Below, piece by piece: positions 15,325 to 41,854 of a DNA stretch of 64,000 nucleotides (position 1 is the first letter of the stretch; every line of letters begins with the position of its first letter). Made by a program: the position numbers and the translations under genes. Origin of the DNA: a virus; the IMG/VR virus record IMGVR_UViG_3300035661_000043, positions 15,756 through 79,755 of that record; one strand, 5' to 3'. Under the pieces are notes generated by a model, which was given only the letters and a program-made list of their open reading frames with translations, had not been told where the DNA came from and made no database searches.

Positions 15325-17031
15325 ATGATTATCTTCGAAAGTATAAGAATCAAGAACTTCCTCAGTTACGGCAATGCATGGACTGAATTAAATCTCAGAC
15401 AGGGAAAAGTACTAGTTGCAGGTGCCAATGGGGCAGGAAAATCTACTATGGTAACTGATGCTCTGTAGTATGCACTATTCGGTAAGCCATTTCGTAAGAT
15501 CAATATCCCACAATTGATCAACTCTATCAACCAGAAGGATTGCCAGGTAGAACTAGATTTCTAGATTGGCAAGGATTCTTACCAAATTAAGAGAGGGATG
15601 AAACCGGGGAAGTTCGAAGTATACAAAAATTCAGAATTGATAAAACAGGAAGCAGCAACAAAGGATTATCAATAGTATCTTGAGCAGCAAGTGCTGAAGA
15701 TAAATCATAAGACGTTTGTACAGATTCTTGTTCTTGGTTCTGCTGTTTTTACTCCTTTTATGCAATTAGCAGCCGGTCATAGAAGAAATGTGATTGAAGA
15801 TCTTCTAGATATCAATGTTTTCAGCACTATGCTTAGATTGCTTAAGGAAAAGATTCAAGTCAATAAAGAAGAAACTCTAATCATCAATGGTAAACTAGAA
15901 TCAGCTAAGAAGGAATAGATTGCACAGAAAAGACTCATTGAAACATTGAGTTCTAAGAGTGATGATCAATTGGTAATTCTGTATTCTGAACTCACATAGT
16001 TACAGAACGATATAGTATCGGCAAAATAGAAGAGAAATGATGTACACAAATTACTTGAATCTATCCAGATTCCTGACTTTATGTCAGAAGAATTAGAAGA
16101 TATAAGAGTTGAATTCAATACACTGAAAAAGTAGATTCAATCAGATATCAAGAAGATAGATTCAGTCTCCGCTATTCATTCATGCCCAACATGTTTACAG
16201 TCTGTAACTGATGATCACAAAGTAAGAATCAAGACTGAACTAAAATATAAGTATGATCAACAGAAACCGAAGCTAGATCAGTATTCTAAAAAAGTTGAAG
16301 AACTGACTACACAGAAAGAATTGTTTGATACAGCAAAGATCGAACAGCAGAAAATGTTGAAAGAACTTGCTGCGATAGACCAGAAAATAATTTCCCTTGA
16401 AGAACAAGAATCTTCCACACGAGTGAAGATCGAGACACAGAAACAAAGTTCTTCTGCAGACTTGGAAAAAGAAAAAGATCGACTCAGAGATTTAGCACAA
16501 TCTGCTCTTATGTTGATTGAACGCAAGAACGAATTGATCACAGAGAAATAGATTCAAGAAGTCTCTCTAGGTCTTCTGAAGGACACAGGTATTAAGGCTA
16601 GTATCATCAAAGAATACCTGCCGATTCTCAATAAGATGATCAACAAGTATCTATCTGAGTTCGACTTTTTCATTAATTTTGTATTGGATGAAAATTTCAA
16701 TGAACAGCTGTTGAGCAGAGGAAGAGATTCGGCTTAGTACTTCTCTCTATCAGAGGGTGAAAAGAAGCGAGTAGATGTTGCAATTCTTCTCGCATTCAGG
16801 CATATTGCTTCTCTAAAGAATTCTGCAAAGATCAATTTGCTTGTTCTTGATGAACTTGATTCTGGGTTGGATCACGACTCTCGTTTGAAGTTGCTAGAAT
16901 TGATCCAGACTATGGATTCCGATGTCTGGATGGTCTCCCACTCTATACAGAACACTGAACTTGAACAGCAGTTCGATAAGGTGACTTTTGTAATGAAGAA
17001 GGGAGATTTTTCAGAAATGATCATCAAGTGA
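15325..17031 (+). CDS. 46: Recombination ATPase gp46, Rad50-like (9 in-frame TAG)
   Basis: KNFLSYGN, GANGAGKST, LFGKPFR, CPTC hook, SEGEK, LDE; one frame to TGA 17029. Confidence 0.95.
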
Positions 17032-17912: not shown

Positions 17913-18854
17913 ATGAGCAGTATTGAAAATTTTGTGTGGAGTGAAAAATATCGACCTTAGACTGTGGCAGAATGCATACTCCCACAGTCAATCAAAAATG
18001 TGATTGTAAGCATGATCAAGAATGAAGATGTGACACATATTCTTATGTCTGGATCTGCTGGTTGTGGGAAAACAACATTAGCTAGAGCCATAGTAAATGA
18101 CTATGGTGGTGAATATCTGTTCATTAATGCATCTTTGGAGAATGGTATCGACACTATCCGAACTAAGGTTATGCAGTATTCCAGTACTGTTTCTTTGGAA
18201 GGAAAACAGAAATTTCTCATCATGGATGAATTTGATGGAATTTCTCGACAGAGTCAAGAGGCTCTTCGTGGTATCATTGAAGAGTTTAAGAATGTAAGAT
18301 TCTTCTTTACTTGCAATTTTAAAAATCGTATTATCGATGCTATCATCTCTCGTACAGTTGAGATCAATTTTACTATCCCAAGTGATGAAAAATCAAAACT
18401 TCAGTCTCAGTTCTTCAAACGTATAGTTGAGATTCTGAAAAAAGAAAATGTAGAGTTTGACCCAAAAGCAGTTGCAGAACTCATCCAAAAAAGTTATCCA
18501 GACAATCGTAAGATTCTGAATGAACTACAACGATATGCGTCAGGTGGTAAAATTGATGCAGGTGTTTTGATAGATCAAAGTAAATCTCACTTCAAAGATC
18601 TACTCAAAACCCTGAAAGAAAAGAACTTTACGGAGATGCGCAAGTGGGTCGCAAAAAATACCGATATTGAACCACAATCACTATTTCGGGAGATTTATGA
18701 TTCTGCTAATGAGCAATTGCTACCTTCTTGTATACCTCAAGTAGTAATTCTTGCTGCAGATTATGGGTTCAAGTCTACACATTCAGTTGATCAAGAAATT
18801 CTTATTGCTGCATTTCTCACTGAATTTATGGCAGGTGCTCAATGGAAGCAGTAA
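17913..18854 (+). CDS. 44: Clamp loader large subunit gp44 (TAG at 17958)
   Basis: EKYRP*TVAECILP, GSAGCGKTT, DEFD, SR motif. Confidence 0.95.
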
Positions 18855-23414: not shown

Positions 23415-23584
23415 GATCAAAAAGTTTCCGACTATTGATTTAGCTGGGACTTTTGTATATTACCAAATACACGTTCACTTTTCTTCATTCCCACAAACGG
23501 GAAGTAATTTTTCTTCGATATCAACAATTTTCAACCTTTACTATATCACCATATAGTATATTTTATTAGAACAGGACCTCATAT

Positions 23585-24229
23585 ATGGATCTTTCTAAAC
23601 TTTCCGATTCCGAATTGTTAAAACTCTACAATAAAGCAGAAGAGGAAATCTCCGCTCTTGATAACTTACAAATGGCACTCAAGATCTCTTTAAATTCACT
23701 TTACGGTGGAATTGGAAATCAAGGGTTCCGTTTCTTCAACTCTAATGTTGCAGAGACAATTACATTGACCGGTCAGTATGTTCTTCGGTCTATTGAGCAA
23801 AGCATCGATGATAAACTGAATAAAGTATTCAAGACAGAGGGTCACAAGTACCTGATCTATATCGACACTGATTCTGTCGTCGGAGATACAAAAATTTTAG
23901 TTAACGGCACTGAAACAACAATTGCAGATTATTATGATTCTAAGACGGAGTTCATCAAAAGAGATGAATTTAATAAAGACTATGTTAAAAAATGTGATTC
24001 AGATTACACACCTACTGTGAATCCAAATACACAGGTAATGGAAAATAAATCTGTTTCATATGTTATGAAACATAGAGTAAAAAAGAGAATGTATAAAATT
24101 ACTGTTGGTGGAAAAGAAGTAATTTGTACGAATGATCACTCAATTATTGTACGCAGGAATAGTCTCATTCTTTCCGTTATTCCCTCAGACATTCTGAAGA
24201 CTGATGAGTTAATACATATTAAGCACTGA
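23585..24229 (+). CDS. 43: DNA polymerase gp43, part B fused to split-intein N half (23873-24226)
   Basis: KISLNSLYG (motif B), YIDTD then SVVGDT..TNDHS; ends TGA. Confidence 0.92.
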   Translation: MDLSKLSDSELLKLYNKAEEEISALDNLQMALKISLNSLYGGIGNQGFRFFNSNVAETITLTGQYVLRSIEQSIDDKLNKVFKTEGHKYLIYIDTDSVVGDTKILVNGTETTIADYYDSKTEFIKRDEFNKDYVKKCDSDYTPTVNPNTQVMENKSVSYVMKHRVKKRMYKITVGGKEVICTNDHSIIVRRNSLILSVIPSDILKTDELIHIKH

Positions 24230-26977: not shown

Positions 26978-27059
26978 ATAAGCCTTTAGTTGGTTGAGTA
27001 AAGTCATCGGGAACGCCAATTCCGCGGGTGACACCTATTCATAATTGTGGAGTTTAGTA

Positions 27060-28502
27060 ATGCAAATTGAGTCAGTGATTATATCGAGTCTTTTGATTAG
27101 TGAGGACTACGCCAGAAAGGTAGTTCCTCACCTTGAAAAAGAATATTTCGCAGAAAGAGTTGATGCTCTCATTTACGATGAAATCAATACTTTCTTCTTG
27201 AAATTCAATGTGCTTCCTACAAAGGATGTACTGCGTGTGCAAATTACAGACAAGTCAGGTATTTCTAATTCTGATGCCGAAGACGCTCTTGCTAGGATAC
27301 AAGGTCTTTCAACCGAGCCGAAAAATCTAGATTGGCTAATAGAAAAGACTGAAGCATTCTGCAGAGATCGTGCTCTGTACAATGCTATCATGAAATCTAT
27401 CACCATCATCGACGGCAAAGATCAGAAACACTAGCGGGAAGCAATCCCTAGTATTCTTCAAGAAGCATTGGGGATTTCTTTTAACACTGCGGTTGGTCAC
27501 TAGTATCTTGATGATGCAGAAAAACGGTTTGATTTTTATACTCGTGTTGAATCTAAGATCGTCATGGATATTGAGATGTTCAATAAGATCACAAATGGCG
27601 GACTGAGCAGAAAAACTCTAAACATCTTATTAGCTCAATCTGGTGGTGGTAAATCATTGGTGATGTCGCACATGGCCGCAGGATGTTTACGAGATGGATT
27701 AAATGTACTCTATATCTCTATGGAGATGTCCGAAGAAAAGATCGCAGAACGTATCGATGCCAACTTACTTGATGTTGAAGTTGACAAGATCAAAGATATT
27801 GGTAAGGATATCTTCTGCACAAAAATTTCTAATCTTGCAGCTAAGACTCACGGAAGATTGTTTATCAAGGAGTATCCATCCGGTGCAGCACACACAGGTC
27901 ATTTCCGCGGTCTGTTAGAAGAACTGAAAACTAAGCAAGATTTTACCCCTGACATTATCTTCATTGATTACCTTGGCATCTGTGCTTCATCTAGGGTGAA
28001 GATGGGAGGGTCAGTTAACTCTTATGCTTACCTGAAATAGATAGCAGAAGAACTTCGTGCATTTGCCACAGAGAATGATGTGCCTGTCGTGACTGCAGGT
28101 CAAGTGAATCGTGGTGGGTACAACACCACAGATTTAGACATGACTGACACATCAGAAAGTTTAGGTATTGCTATGACCGCAGATGTGATGCTAGGTATTG
28201 TTCGAACTGAAGAACTCGATGATATGAATCAGTTGATGATGGTACAACTGAAAAATAGATATTAGGATCCCACTATCAATAAAAGATTTACTGTCGGTCT
28301 AAATCGCGCTAAGATGAAGTTATATGATCTGGAAGGGATGGCAAATTCCGGTTTCACACCAGATGCAAAAAATAAAACATATGCACCAAAAATTGCATAG
28401 AACACCAGAGAAGACACACCGGTATCAGAAGATGTTATAGAATAGTTACCGGTTGCAGGTATTAAATCTAAAACAGTCAACACACAAGGATTCGCGTTTT
28501 GA
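27060..28502 (+). CDS. 41: Replicative helicase gp41 (6 TAG)
   Basis: FCRDRALYNA, AQSGGGKS, SMEMSEEKIAERID, IDYLGIC, K*IAEELR, KNRY*DP. Confidence 0.95.
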
Positions 28503-31760: not shown

Positions 31761-31786
31761 GCTTTTAATCAAAGCCGTGTTATAAT
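31761..31786 (+). promoter_or_regulatory. Representative of a phage promoter family RCTTTTA-N13-TATAAT
   Basis: Same spacing at 30128, 31761, 32023, 32598, 32805, 32986, 33177, 39848, 42410, 43627, 49400, 51689, 57133, 63312. Confidence 0.8.
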
Positions 31787-31826
31787 GAACACATGGAAAC
31801 AAACAAGGTAAACTAAGGTAACAATC

Positions 31827-32018
31827 ATGACTAAACTTTCAACTGTGATTTTCTCTATGTCTTCCTCTAACATCCGAAATGCTAACAAGATCTTTGATGG
31901 TTCTATTGAAAAGACCAAAGAACAGAAGAAGTTGACTTCTATTGCAAATCGAGTGTCTAAAGCCAAGCGCGAGTCTATGAAGCCTGGTCCTTGTGTTGTG
32001 ATCACTTCTCAGAAATAA
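31827..32018 (+). CDS. Hypothetical protein
   Basis: Follows promoter and RBS. Confidence 0.55.
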   Translation: MTKLSTVIFSMSSSNIRNANKIFDGSIEKTKEQKKLTSIANRVSKAKRESMKPGPCVVITSQK

Positions 32019-32397
32019 AGTAGCTTTTATTCGGATGTGTGTTATAATGAACACATGAAAACAAAACAACAAATTGCCCTTGTTCTTTATCATCTCGACC
32101 CAATGGGTACTTGCTGTAAAGAGAACGAACTCTTCGATGAGTATGAAAAAGAAGCAGATATGATTGCTTCTGGTTGTTCGTTGAAAGCTGTATTCTTTTC
32201 TTGCTTTTGGAAAGGTTGTTTAAATAATAGACAACTGAAAGAAATCAAGGAAAAGATCGATGCTATAGTTTAAGCAGTTGCTGAATGAGAATGAAGCTCA
32301 AGCAGGGGCTCCTATGATCATTACTGAGACTGTGACTATTTTGGAAATAGTTGTAAAATAGTTTCCTAAAAGTTGCACATTGAGTATAAATAAGTAT

Positions 32398-32520
32398 ATG
32401 AACAAAATTTTCAATCACTTCCATAGAGCTCCCTCAAGTCTAGACACAAAATAGACATGGTGCTGTGCATACACAACTGGCTATAATGCACCGATGATTG
32501 AGGGAAGAGGATACACCTAA
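32398..32520 (+). CDS. Putative leader peptide (40 aa, 1 TAG) after late promoter TATAAATA at 32385
   Basis: ATG 5 nt after the promoter; terminator hairpin at about 32553-32585. Confidence 0.35.
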
Positions 32521-32801
32521 GCATAACAAGAACGATACTTTATATCTTGTTAGGGTCTTAGGGAAACTTAAGATCCTTTTTGTTTATGATCTGCGATACT
32601 TTTAATCAAAGTTGTGTTATAATAAACACATGAAAACAAAACTTCAAACTGTTGTGTTAGGTGGGAGAGCTTATGTGGGTGGATTCATAAATCAAAACAA
32701 CTGGGTTGTGGATCTGAAGGGAAGAAATGTAGCTGAGTGCTATAGCAAAGAGGTTGCAAGAGCTCTTGCAAAAGAACTCAACAAAATGTTTGAATACGGT
32801 A

Positions 32802-33210
32802 ACAGCTTTTAATCAAAGTTGTGTTATAATAAAAGAAAAACAAGTGATCGGACTTGTTTGGATGGATCTTTTAAAATTTGTTGTCATAACGCTTTAGTGG
32901 TTATATTCTGACACAGTGTTACACAGTACAGTCTATGAGTTTTTTAGGATGTTGACAACAAATTTTAAAAGTTTCATTTAGTACAGCTTTTAATCAAAGT
33001 TGTGTTATAATAAACACATGGAAACAAACAAGGTGATAGGGCTTTGTTTGATGGATCTTTTAAAATTTGTTCTAGTTACGTGCACAATGGGTAGACATGT
33101 TGGTAGCTAAACATCAGTGGTGTTTAGAAATACGATTTGGTAACTAGAACAAATTTTAAAAGTTTCATTTAGTACAGCTTTTAATCAAAGTTGTGTTATA
33201 ATAAACACAT
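32802..33210 (+). repeat. Tandem promoter plus long-hairpin cassettes
   Basis: Constant flanks; inverted repeats 32868-32886/32953-32971 and 33057-33079/33140-33162. Confidence 0.8.
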
Positions 33211-33994: not shown

Positions 33995-34082
33995 GGAGGT
34001 GCTGAGCATAAGTGAGCTCAACTGACTGTAAATCAGCCGCATCATCAATAAGCCTGTGTAGGAGCGTTACCTGCCGCCTCCA
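33995..34082 (+). tRNA. tRNA-Tyr(GTA)
   Basis: CTGA-CTGTAAA-TCAG, long variable arm, extended flanking stem. Confidence 0.7.
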
Positions 34083-34280: not shown

Positions 34281-34356
34281 GGGACTATAGTTTAATGGTT
34301 AAAACATCACCCCTTTAAGGTGTAAGCTCTCGGTTCGAATCCGAGTAGTCCTACCA
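34281..34356 (+). tRNA. tRNA-Lys(TTT)
   Basis: GGGACTA/TAGTCCT, CACC-CCTTTAA-GGTG, ACCA. Confidence 0.8.
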
Positions 34357-37454: not shown

Positions 37455-37820
37455 TGTGCGATATCTCTATCGCACATCAGAATGACTGTATGGATCTTCG
37501 GATCTGTGAAGTTGAAAGAAATGTGTTCAGGAAGCGAGTTCGAGTCTCGCCAGCTCCACCAGAAGTATATCATCTGATGCATTCTGTGTGCTGTATATAT
37601 TGCAAGTATTCAGTATACTTCTGATGGGGCTGTATTGGTTTCGACTGGGCAATGAGTATGGAGATGGACAGTTTGGCAACGCAGAAGCCATTATGATTGG
37701 GTCTTCCCGGTTGAAGAAGCAAACAAAAGTAAAAGCAAACGCTGATACATTCCTGATGGCGGCTTGATCGCCCAGTGAGGATTCCTTGGGTGTTCCTTAT
37801 TACCAAAACACCCATCCTAA
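37455..37820 (+). ncRNA. ssrA: Circularly permuted two-piece tmRNA; tag ANADTFLMAA (outer ends approximate)
   Basis: T arm plus CAGCTCCACCA ends at 37561, before GGGGCTGTATTGGTTTCGAC at 37626; G3-U70 pair; tag frame 37735-37767. Confidence 0.9.
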
Positions 37821-37825
37821 TATAC

Positions 37826-37913
37826 GGAGAGTGGACCTGCAGGGTGCAGGCGCTGTTTGCTAAACAGTTGGTGTCAGGAATGGCATTCCGGTCGGGACGG
37901 ACTCTCTCCTCCA
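37826..37913 (+). tRNA. tRNA-Ser(GCT)
   Basis: GGAGAG/CTCTCC, CTGT-TTGCTAA-ACAG, long variable arm, TCCA. Confidence 0.75.
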
Positions 37914-38877: not shown

Positions 38878-39141
38878 GCAAATTTAGCTCAATGGTTAGA
38901 GCAGCGGACTCATGAAAAATTGTGCACCTAGGTAGGGATGCTTAGTGTGAATGTTGTCAAATTCGAAGAAACCTAAGTCAGAAATGATATGGTAACCTCG
39001 AGCCAAGCCTGAGAAATTAGGTGCTGTGTAGAGACTAGACGGCAACCATCTAGAACAGATGAAGGTATAGTCCAGGGAGTGGCGAAAGTCACACAAACCA
39101 GAATCCGTTGGTTACAGGTTCGAGTCCTGTAATTTGCACCA
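38878..39141 (+). tRNA. tRNA(CAT), probably Ile2, interrupted by a group I intron
   Basis: Exon 1 38878-38913 ends CTCAT; exon 2 39102-39141 AATCCG..ACCA; the spliced product is a canonical cloverleaf. Confidence 0.92.
38914..39101 (+). mobile_element. Group I intron (188 nt), Azoarcus tRNA-Ile type
   Basis: GTCAAATTCG..AAACCTAAG, GAGCCAAGC, GTAGAGACTAGACGGC, ATAGTCCAGGGAGTGGCGAAAGTCAC, terminal G. Confidence 0.93.
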
Positions 39142-41704: not shown

Positions 41705-41764
41705 AGTATGTTATAATTACTCAACAACAAAAGAGAAACACTCTTTCTAACTTAATAGTTTAAT

Positions 41765-41854
41765 GGAAGTTTGGCAGAGTGGTTTATTGCCGCGGACTCT
41801 AAATCCGCTGAATCAGAGATGGTTCCACGAGTTCGAATCTCGTAACTTCCTCCA
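41765..41854 (+). tRNA. Amber-decoding tRNA with CUA anticodon and Ser-type body
   Basis: GGAAGTT/AACTTCC, GCGGA-CT-CTA-AA-TCCGC (anticodon 41799-41801), 6-bp variable stem with GAGA loop, perfect T arm, TCCA. Confidence 0.95.

Follow-up and report, generated by a model that had tools for sequence, protein, structure and literature searches.

A serine-type class II tRNA with a CUA anticodon as the probable reader of UAG in a T4-like phage

A tRNA gene with the anticodon CUA, here referred to as tRNA(CUA), is located on a contig of a T4-like phage whose reading frames are interrupted by numerous TAG codons. This raises the question whether its product decodes UAG in the phage, and which amino acid it delivers. 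The contig (IMG/VR record IMGVR_UViG_3300035661_000043) is linear, comprises 79,755 bp and was estimated by CheckV to be approximately 45% complete. The stretch analyzed, referred to as the window, covers bases 15756 to 79755 of the record (64,000 nt); all positions given below are those of the window unless another contig is named. Pfam and tblastn analyses identified gp17, gp18, gp19, gp20, UvsW, gp55, gp47, gp46, gp44, gp43, gp41 and the topoisomerase II subunits, which assigns the phage to the T4-like group. The same sequence was found in microbial-mat and sediment metagenomes of three further studies, with no RNA run among the matches. The answer to which we assign a probability of about 85% is that tRNA(CUA) acts as a phage amber suppressor with the body of a bacterial class II tRNA-Ser, and that through it the T4-like phage translates UAG as serine.

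The tRNA(CUA) gene and its promoter-like element

ARAGORN identified 14 RNA genes in the window, including a 90-nt tRNA with the anticodon CTA at 41765-41854 (+ strand); the label "Pyl" given to it by the program derives from the anticodon alone. The gene scored 54.1 bits on the Rfam tRNA model RF00005, well above the gathering score of 29, and the ViennaRNA fold of the single sequence showed a fifth hairpin in addition to the arms of a cloverleaf (z = −2.44). A preliminary description of this DNA, made from the letters only, had claimed a perfect 90-nt cloverleaf with a CUA anticodon. Cloverleaf, length, and anticodon were confirmed, and the word "perfect" is justified except for two wobble pairs (G13.U22 and a U.G pair in the variable stem). 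An identical gene was present on a contig from a second metagenome sample.

The anatomy of tRNA(CUA) was read from the sequence. The acceptor stem comprises 7 bp (GGAAGUU/AACUUCC), and the D stem (GCAG/UUGC) has four pairs including G13.U22 and encloses the loop AGUGGUUUA. In this loop (AGU-GG-UUUA), three nucleotides precede G18G19 and four follow, a layout as in E. coli serT; position 20b is U, not G. The anticodon arm is formed by the stem GCGGA/UCCGC and the loop CUCUAAA. It is followed by U44, a 6-bp variable stem (GAAUCA/UGGUUC, with one U.G pair) closed by the loop GAGA, and then directly by C48. The T arm has the stem ACGAG/CUCGU and the loop UUCGAAU, and the 3′ end consists of the discriminator U73 and an encoded CCA. 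Both the long 6-bp variable stem abutting C48 and the GGAAG acceptor start, which had been noted before, were thus recovered. In pyrrolysine tRNAs, the D loop is small, the variable loop has 3 nt, and the anticodon stem comprises 6 bp; tRNA(CUA) has only the anticodon in common with them and differs in its 18-nt variable region and its canonical D and T loops.

An extended −10 promoter-like motif, TGTTATAAT, is located at 41709-41717 (+), 48 nt upstream of tRNA(CUA) and 5 nt past the stop codon of the upstream ORF. The gene had been proposed to stand behind its own element at about 41709, and this element was indeed found, as a motif common to 21 other sites. The motif TGNTATAAT occurred 22 times in the window, always on the + strand, versus 4.5 copies expected, and none of 100 shuffled sequences reached 22. 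In 13 of the 22 copies, including those before the main tRNA cluster, a GCTTTTAWTC box was present near −30 (about 12 nt upstream of the motif); it was absent at the remaining nine, among them the copy before tRNA(CUA). Based on the enrichment of TGNTATAAT and the missing box, tRNA(CUA) has its own promoter-like element of slightly different build; the separate timing that the preliminary description had read from this element has weak support. A sigma-70 scan requiring a −35 element yielded no more sites in the window than expected by chance, the 41709 site not being among them, and the T4 late motif TATAAATA was not enriched. Sites combining the motif with the box include those at 31778-33202, 38396, 39865, 43644, 49417, 57150, and 59305 (all +), and the arrangement resembles a T4 middle promoter with a MotA box. 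As stated earlier, tRNA(CUA) is positioned apart from the main tRNA cluster; the distance to the last cluster tRNA amounts to 1.2 kb, with two ORFs in between.

TAG as a sense codon and the residue at TAG

When TAG is read through, fragmented frames merge into full-length genes. About 90 in-frame TAGs were found in at least 30 genes, which encode structural as well as replication and recombination proteins; gp46 contains nine, gp41 six, a 300-aa protein eight, and a 567-aa protein twelve. Their distribution divides the contig into two blocks. The 39 genes of the first 46 kb contain 89 in-frame TAGs in 12,640 codons. The second block comprises 20 genes, among them those for the topoisomerase II subunits and thymidylate kinase identified by Pfam, and extends from 56.8 kb of the record to the contig end (41030-64000, +). 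None of its 4,521 codons is an in-frame TAG, while the frequency in the first block predicts about 32, and none of its genes stops at TAG. As it begins at the ORF just upstream of the tRNA gene (41030), tRNA(CUA) is located inside the TAG-free block, near its head. The stop codons of the 59 genes are TAA (36) and TGA (23), never TAG. The locus thus has the hallmarks of phage stop-codon recoding: a suppressor tRNA, many in-frame stops, the lack of a TAG terminator, and a TAG-free block.

The residue represented by TAG was deduced from codon swaps between the phage and a close relative, to which the IMG/VR contigs L002 and L003 belong (approximately 84% nucleotide and 91.5% amino acid sequence identity over 4,407 aligned codons). 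Ten TAGs are common to both phages, and at 20 sites TAG in one faces a sense codon in the other. This codon specifies Ser at 13 sites (TCT 8, TCA 3, TCG 1, AGT 1), Gln at four, and Glu, Gly, and His at one each. Evaluated with the substitution frequencies of the pair itself, the swaps gave log-likelihoods of −42.1 for Ser, −78.1 for Ala, and −81.1 for Gln; neither Leu nor Tyr ranked among the eight best residues. Four Gln swaps in 20 exceed the usual exchange between Ser and Gln; this excess fits with CAG being a single-transition neighbor of TAG.

Conserved columns of homologous proteins pointed to the same residue. In the SbcC/Rad50-like gp46 (15325-17031, +), whose nine in-frame TAGs became apparent on translation, Ser predominates at the TAG columns 48, 198, 409, and 471 among 120 homologues; it occupies these columns in the closest ones (50–79% identity), and 97 of the 120 have it at column 471. 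In the gp41 replicative helicase (27045-28502, +; six in-frame TAGs), alignment with homologues revealed Ser at columns 153, 332, and 407 in most of the closest ones, and at column 153 in all that were aligned. JGI gp41 proteins of 85–89% identity have Ser at four of the six TAG sites; as these proteins were called with code 11, no TAG can be hidden in them. The gp44 clamp loader (17913-18854, +) contains a single TAG in the motif EKYRPxT, which reads QKYRPST in T4 gp44 (PDB 8unf), and L002 has TCT at this site. Among the T4 proteins in the PDB, gp44 alone gave a clear result, those for gp41, gp46, and gp17 being too distant to inform on the residue. At the level of 80 T4-like loci with about 40% identity, discrimination was weak (log-likelihoods of −62.2 for Ser, −62.6 for Thr, and −63.9 for Gln). 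Some gp46 homologues (P0005-P0011 and P0018, 58–78% identical) have Gln at these and at other columns where Ser is otherwise conserved; they are probably code-15 gene calls on phages in which TAG stands for Ser, which would amount to a systematic error of annotation.

An additional constraint comes from the portal protein gp20 (108-2147, +), in which Pfam (Portal_T4, Intein_splicing) located a 211-aa intein with a TAG as its +1 codon (1557-1559, +). The intein begins with CLDMST and ends with YTQN, giving the junction ...YTQN-TAG-MMEDFW. Protein splicing requires Cys, Ser, or Thr as +1 nucleophile; thus, Gln, Leu, and Tyr are incompatible with the portal TAG. In intein-free gp20 homologues, the corresponding position is occupied by Ser (four) or Thr (one). 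The portal intein therefore represents a built-in test, as its splicing depends on Ser, Cys, or Thr at the TAG position. Its penultimate residue is Gln, not His. Further inteins were observed in the large terminase (contig L004, 10631-12844) and in the DNA polymerase (23435-24229).

These data provide independent support that TAG is read as serine in this phage. Swaps, Ser columns, and the intein +1 position are all at odds with genetic code 15, in which TAG specifies Gln.

Amino acid identity of tRNA(CUA) and alternative explanations

In E. coli, the variable stem of class II tRNA-Ser abuts position 48, whereas tRNA-Leu and tRNA-Tyr have unpaired bases there. SerRS recognizes the long variable arm and ignores the anticodon. 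The layout of tRNA(CUA) is that of a class II tRNA-Ser, with the variable stem abutting C48, no unpaired nucleotide on its 3′ side, and a 3+4 D loop. The closest genes, whether from E. coli or from the phage collection, are all annotated as tRNA-Ser, with 73–76% identity over the full length, and include E. coli serT. The preliminary description had suggested isotype model scores as a check. Home-made Infernal covariance models were used, built for Ser and Leu only from small training sets (11 independent phage tRNA-Ser and 8 phage tRNA-Leu); tRNA(CUA) scored 71.9 bits on the Ser model versus 49.5 bits on the Leu model, a difference of 22 bits in favor of Ser.

At the level of single positions, tRNA(CUA) has the G1-C72, G2-C71, and C11-G24 pairs characteristic of tRNA-Ser (D stem G10 C11 A12/U23 G24 C25). 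The former two are conserved in most bacterial tRNA-Ser (PMC9976931). The G73 found in nearly all bacterial tRNA-Ser is replaced by U73, a departure from a bacterial rule that may not be that of the host. Among 15 phage tRNA-Ser with sense anticodons, four likewise have U73, one of these from a T4-like Erwinia phage, and G73 is only of moderate importance for SerRS in E. coli and no determinant in vitro (PMC9976931); thus, U73 does not exclude SerRS. A73, in turn, is critical for LeuRS and TyrRS (PMC9976931) and was found in all eight Leu and both Tyr tRNAs of the phage sample. Its replacement in tRNA(CUA) removes a determinant that these rival enzymes need.

From these sequence features we infer that tRNA(CUA) would be charged by the host SerRS, a charging that the Ser residue deduced at TAG supports indirectly. 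Within the 80 kb of the record, no release-factor domain, no class II synthetase core, and no synthetase gene at all was detected, and no further CUA tRNA was found, also when ARAGORN was run at a low threshold that gave many doubtful calls. The serine-type TAG decoder proposed in the preliminary description is supported by two independent lines, from the protein side (swaps, Ser columns, intein +1 position) and from the tRNA side (architecture, nearest genes, models, missing A73).

In the mechanism we propose, the host RNA polymerase would transcribe tRNA(CUA) from the extended −10 promoter, and RNase P would trim a leader of approximately 40 nt from the transcript, the CCA end of which is already encoded. 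Host SerRS would then charge the tRNA, recognizing its long variable arm as well as the G1-C72 and G2-C71 pairs and leaving the anticodon unread, while U73 in place of A73 would keep off LeuRS and TyrRS. The Ser-tRNA(CUA) formed would outcompete RF1 at UAG. Full-length gp41, gp46, terminase, portal, and tail proteins would consequently be made only after tRNA(CUA) has built up, and the portal intein would depend on the TAG-encoded Ser for splicing. The TAG-free genes, on the other hand, could be translated before tRNA(CUA) accumulates.

Other explanations have to be weighed against a serine suppressor. It is very unlikely that tRNA(CUA) reads UAG with another amino acid, either Leu or Tyr as the other class II types, or Gln. 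For Gln, one may refer to the four Gln swaps at 20 TAG sites and to the published phages with a code differing from that of the host, in which the residue was Gln or Trp in every case; yet the swaps favor Ser over Gln by log-likelihoods of −42 versus −81, Gln tRNAs belong to class I, and Gln is as incompatible with the intein +1 position as are Leu and Tyr. The case for Tyr would rest on U35 and A36, which belong to the determinant set of TyrRS (PMC9976931), and that for Leu on the 49.5 bits that tRNA(CUA) still reaches on the Leu model. Both residues were outside the best eight in the swap analysis, the A73 needed by their synthetases is missing, and C48 follows the variable stem directly, which is the arrangement of tRNA-Ser and not that of tRNA-Leu or tRNA-Tyr; the Leu score itself is 22 bits below that of the Ser model. 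Alternatively, TAG may be read as Ser mainly by a different decoder, tRNA(CUA) being an accessory. This decoder could be a second suppressor encoded in the missing 55% of the genome, a host tRNA, or the tRNA at 34281-34356 (+), if this had the anticodon UUA and read TAG by wobble. We consider such an arrangement unlikely. With a contig of about 45% completeness there is room for a second suppressor, or for a phage factor acting on RF1; tRNA(CUA), on the other side, is intact, is preceded by a promoter-type motif, is identical in the strain from the second metagenome, and is a member of a conserved family. ARAGORN labeled the tRNA at 34281 "Stop(UUA)", whereas Infernal placed a 4-bp anticodon stem around the loop CCUUUAA, resulting in the anticodon UUU preceded by C33. 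As a class I tRNA it would not be charged by SerRS, and a UUA anticodon would also decode TAA, the terminator of 36 of the 59 genes. No relative of this tRNA was present among the loci examined.

The reassignment may also not be the phage's own, if the host itself read TAG as Ser and tRNA(CUA) only topped up the supply. Phages of code-25 bacteria are indeed known to use the code of their host (10.1101/2021.08.26.457843). The 20 consecutive TAG-free genes, with 0 instead of about 32 TAGs in 4,521 codons, rather fit genes that need the standard code, and a bacterium with TAG as a Ser codon is neither known nor was one found in the literature. We regard a serine-reading host as highly improbable. 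The probability is negligible that tRNA(CUA) is a nonfunctional relic, or that the in-frame TAGs are assembly artifacts or programmed truncations. The phage does contain several aberrant tRNA-like elements, which is nothing specific to a relic, while all stems of tRNA(CUA) are paired, its loops are canonical, and its sequence is identical in independent metagenome contigs. The TAGs are located within essential conserved domains, the frames run on past them, and ten are in common with the 84%-identical relative. The evidence on all these points is best accommodated by tRNA(CUA) as a serine-inserting suppressor of the phage.

Related CUA tRNAs, known recoding systems, and other tRNA-like elements

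A pattern search identified six further IMG/VR phage contigs with class II CUA tRNAs that have the same D arm (UGGCAGAGUGGUUUAUUGC). Three of these contigs are complete genomes: G001 (77 kb), G002 (77 kb), and G003 (IMGVR_UViG_3300021400_000154, L199-L204; 110.6 kb with direct terminal repeats). A search of IMG/VR with the exact anticodon-arm pattern gave 46 CUA tRNAs and no orthologue of tRNA(CUA). In the alignment of tRNA(CUA) with its six homologues, 98.3% of the stem cells were paired, and 14 of 27 pairs exhibited compensatory changes; this covariation was reached by none of 500 shuffles, and slid controls did not come close either. The six homologues scored 54–70 bits on the Ser model.

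In G003, a single base separates the CUA tRNA from a tRNA-Ser(UGA), whose acceptor stem is also that of the CUA tRNAs in another lineage. The genome contains a tape-measure-like frame of 5,479 codons (50530-66969 of G003) with 57 in-frame TAGs and neither TAA nor TGA. In a tail protein of G003, residue 322 is encoded by TAG, and 122 of 133 homologues have Ser at this position, which links a Ser-type CUA tRNA to TAG as a Ser codon also in an unrelated phage. A close relative of this tail protein was not found in IMG/VR. The terminase of G003 was discarded as a test of the residue, since its three TAGs are upstream of the true start. Swaps between G003 and L181 amounted to three only, all to Gln, and those between G001 and G002, which carry a related tRNA, were to Gln (five), TAA (four), and Ser (three).

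At somewhat less than even odds, we consider that TAG-to-Ser is a recurrent, as yet unpublished phage code, in which one tRNA family with an invariant D arm and host-adapted acceptors has spread across unrelated lineages, and in which portal splicing serves as a checkpoint of virion assembly. The lineages concerned would be the T4-like myovirus from mats, the 110-kb siphovirus-like phage, and the 77-kb phages. If this is true, virion assembly would check suppressor activity, as the portal intein splices only after Ser has been inserted at UAG.

In phages with a code unlike that of their host, only TAG-to-Gln and TGA-to-Trp have been observed according to the preprint of Borges and coworkers (10.1101/2021.08.26.457843). 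Recoded phages with a Sup(CUA) tRNA and TAG as a Gln codon comprise crAss-like, Lak, Garnet, and Topaz phages and phAss-1 (10.1101/2021.08.26.457843; PMC9523058; PMC10607447); the metaproteomic validation and the phAss-1 paper both concern Gln. No report of TAG or UAG being read as Ser in a phage was found by full-text searches of the literature. To our knowledge, TAG is a Ser codon in none of the NCBI translation tables. The phage described here resembles code-15 phages in having a phage-encoded suppressor tRNA, in-frame stops in a subset of genes, a block compatible with the standard code, no dedicated synthetase, and a host presumed to use the standard code. It differs from them in the residue, which is Ser instead of Gln, in the class II Ser-type tRNA, and in its nature and origin, the code-15 phages being gut phages and this one a T4-like myovirus found in sediment and microbial mats. 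In addition, TAG is found here in replication and recombination genes, beyond the late or lytic genes affected in code-15 phages. Whereas recoding by suppressor tRNAs is known as such, our data support phage stop-codon recoding with serine and a class II tRNA as new.

Serine-inserting amber suppressors are well known from the laboratory, namely E. coli supD (serU, a tRNA-Ser with a CUA anticodon) and psu1+ of phage T4 (a mutant T4 tRNA-Ser). Both combine a class II tRNA-Ser body with a CUA anticodon, are charged by SerRS, and insert Ser at UAG, as predicted for tRNA(CUA), and psu1+ is likewise carried by a T4-type phage. They are single-step laboratory mutants that rescue few nonsense alleles; tRNA(CUA), unlike them, is a fixed separate gene with U73 in a genome adapted to it (about 90 sense TAGs, no TAG stops, a TAG-free block). 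In the Candida clade, CUG was reassigned to Ser through a tRNA-Ser(CAG) (NCBI table 12). There, too, a Ser tRNA captured a codon by means of a new anticodon, which SerRS does not check. The Candida change is from sense to sense in a eukaryotic nucleus, whereas that of the phage is from stop to sense in a virus and proceeds against the release factor of the host.

The bias toward Gln and Trp has been explained in the literature by the unusual ease with which GlnRS and TrpRS can be repurposed. As SerRS never reads the anticodon, any copy of a tRNA-Ser can capture a codon, and a serine code would represent a third, mechanistically simpler route to stop reassignment in phages. For annotation, this implies that gene callers offering only code 15 place Gln at sites where TAG stands for Ser, and that screens based on a gain in coding density can miss such phages. 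tRNA(CUA) itself offers a natural candidate when a Ser amber suppressor is sought.

The window contains further tRNA-like elements. The preliminary description had likened the ends of tRNA(CUA) to those of a tRNA-Ser(GCT) at 37826. The element at 37826-37913 (+) does start with GGAGAG, ends with CUCC-U-CCA, and has a GCU loop, but its arms are aberrant (a 6-bp/3-nt "D arm" and a noncanonical T loop). It was called neither by ARAGORN nor by Rfam (E < 0.1), scored 28.4 bits on the Ser model, and folded with z = −1.24; its function as a tRNA-Ser(GCU) is doubtful. It may nevertheless be real, as the same odd D arm is present in an ARAGORN-called tRNA-Ser(GCU) of another phage; the comparison with it carries little weight in either direction. 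A class II tRNA-Tyr(GUA)-like gene at 33995-34082 (+) has A73, lacks an encoded CCA, and is odd in its T loop; it scored 26–29 bits, just below the Rfam gathering score. The permuted two-piece tmRNA at 37502-37767 (+; 94.7 bits, Rfam) encodes the tag peptide ANADTFLMAA and may hint at a host with a permuted tmRNA. In the tRNA-Met(CAU) at 38878-39141 (+), a 188-nt group I intron follows position 37 (RF00028, 66.4 bits; found by ARAGORN with introns allowed), and junctions of its flanks without the intron also exist in metagenome contigs.
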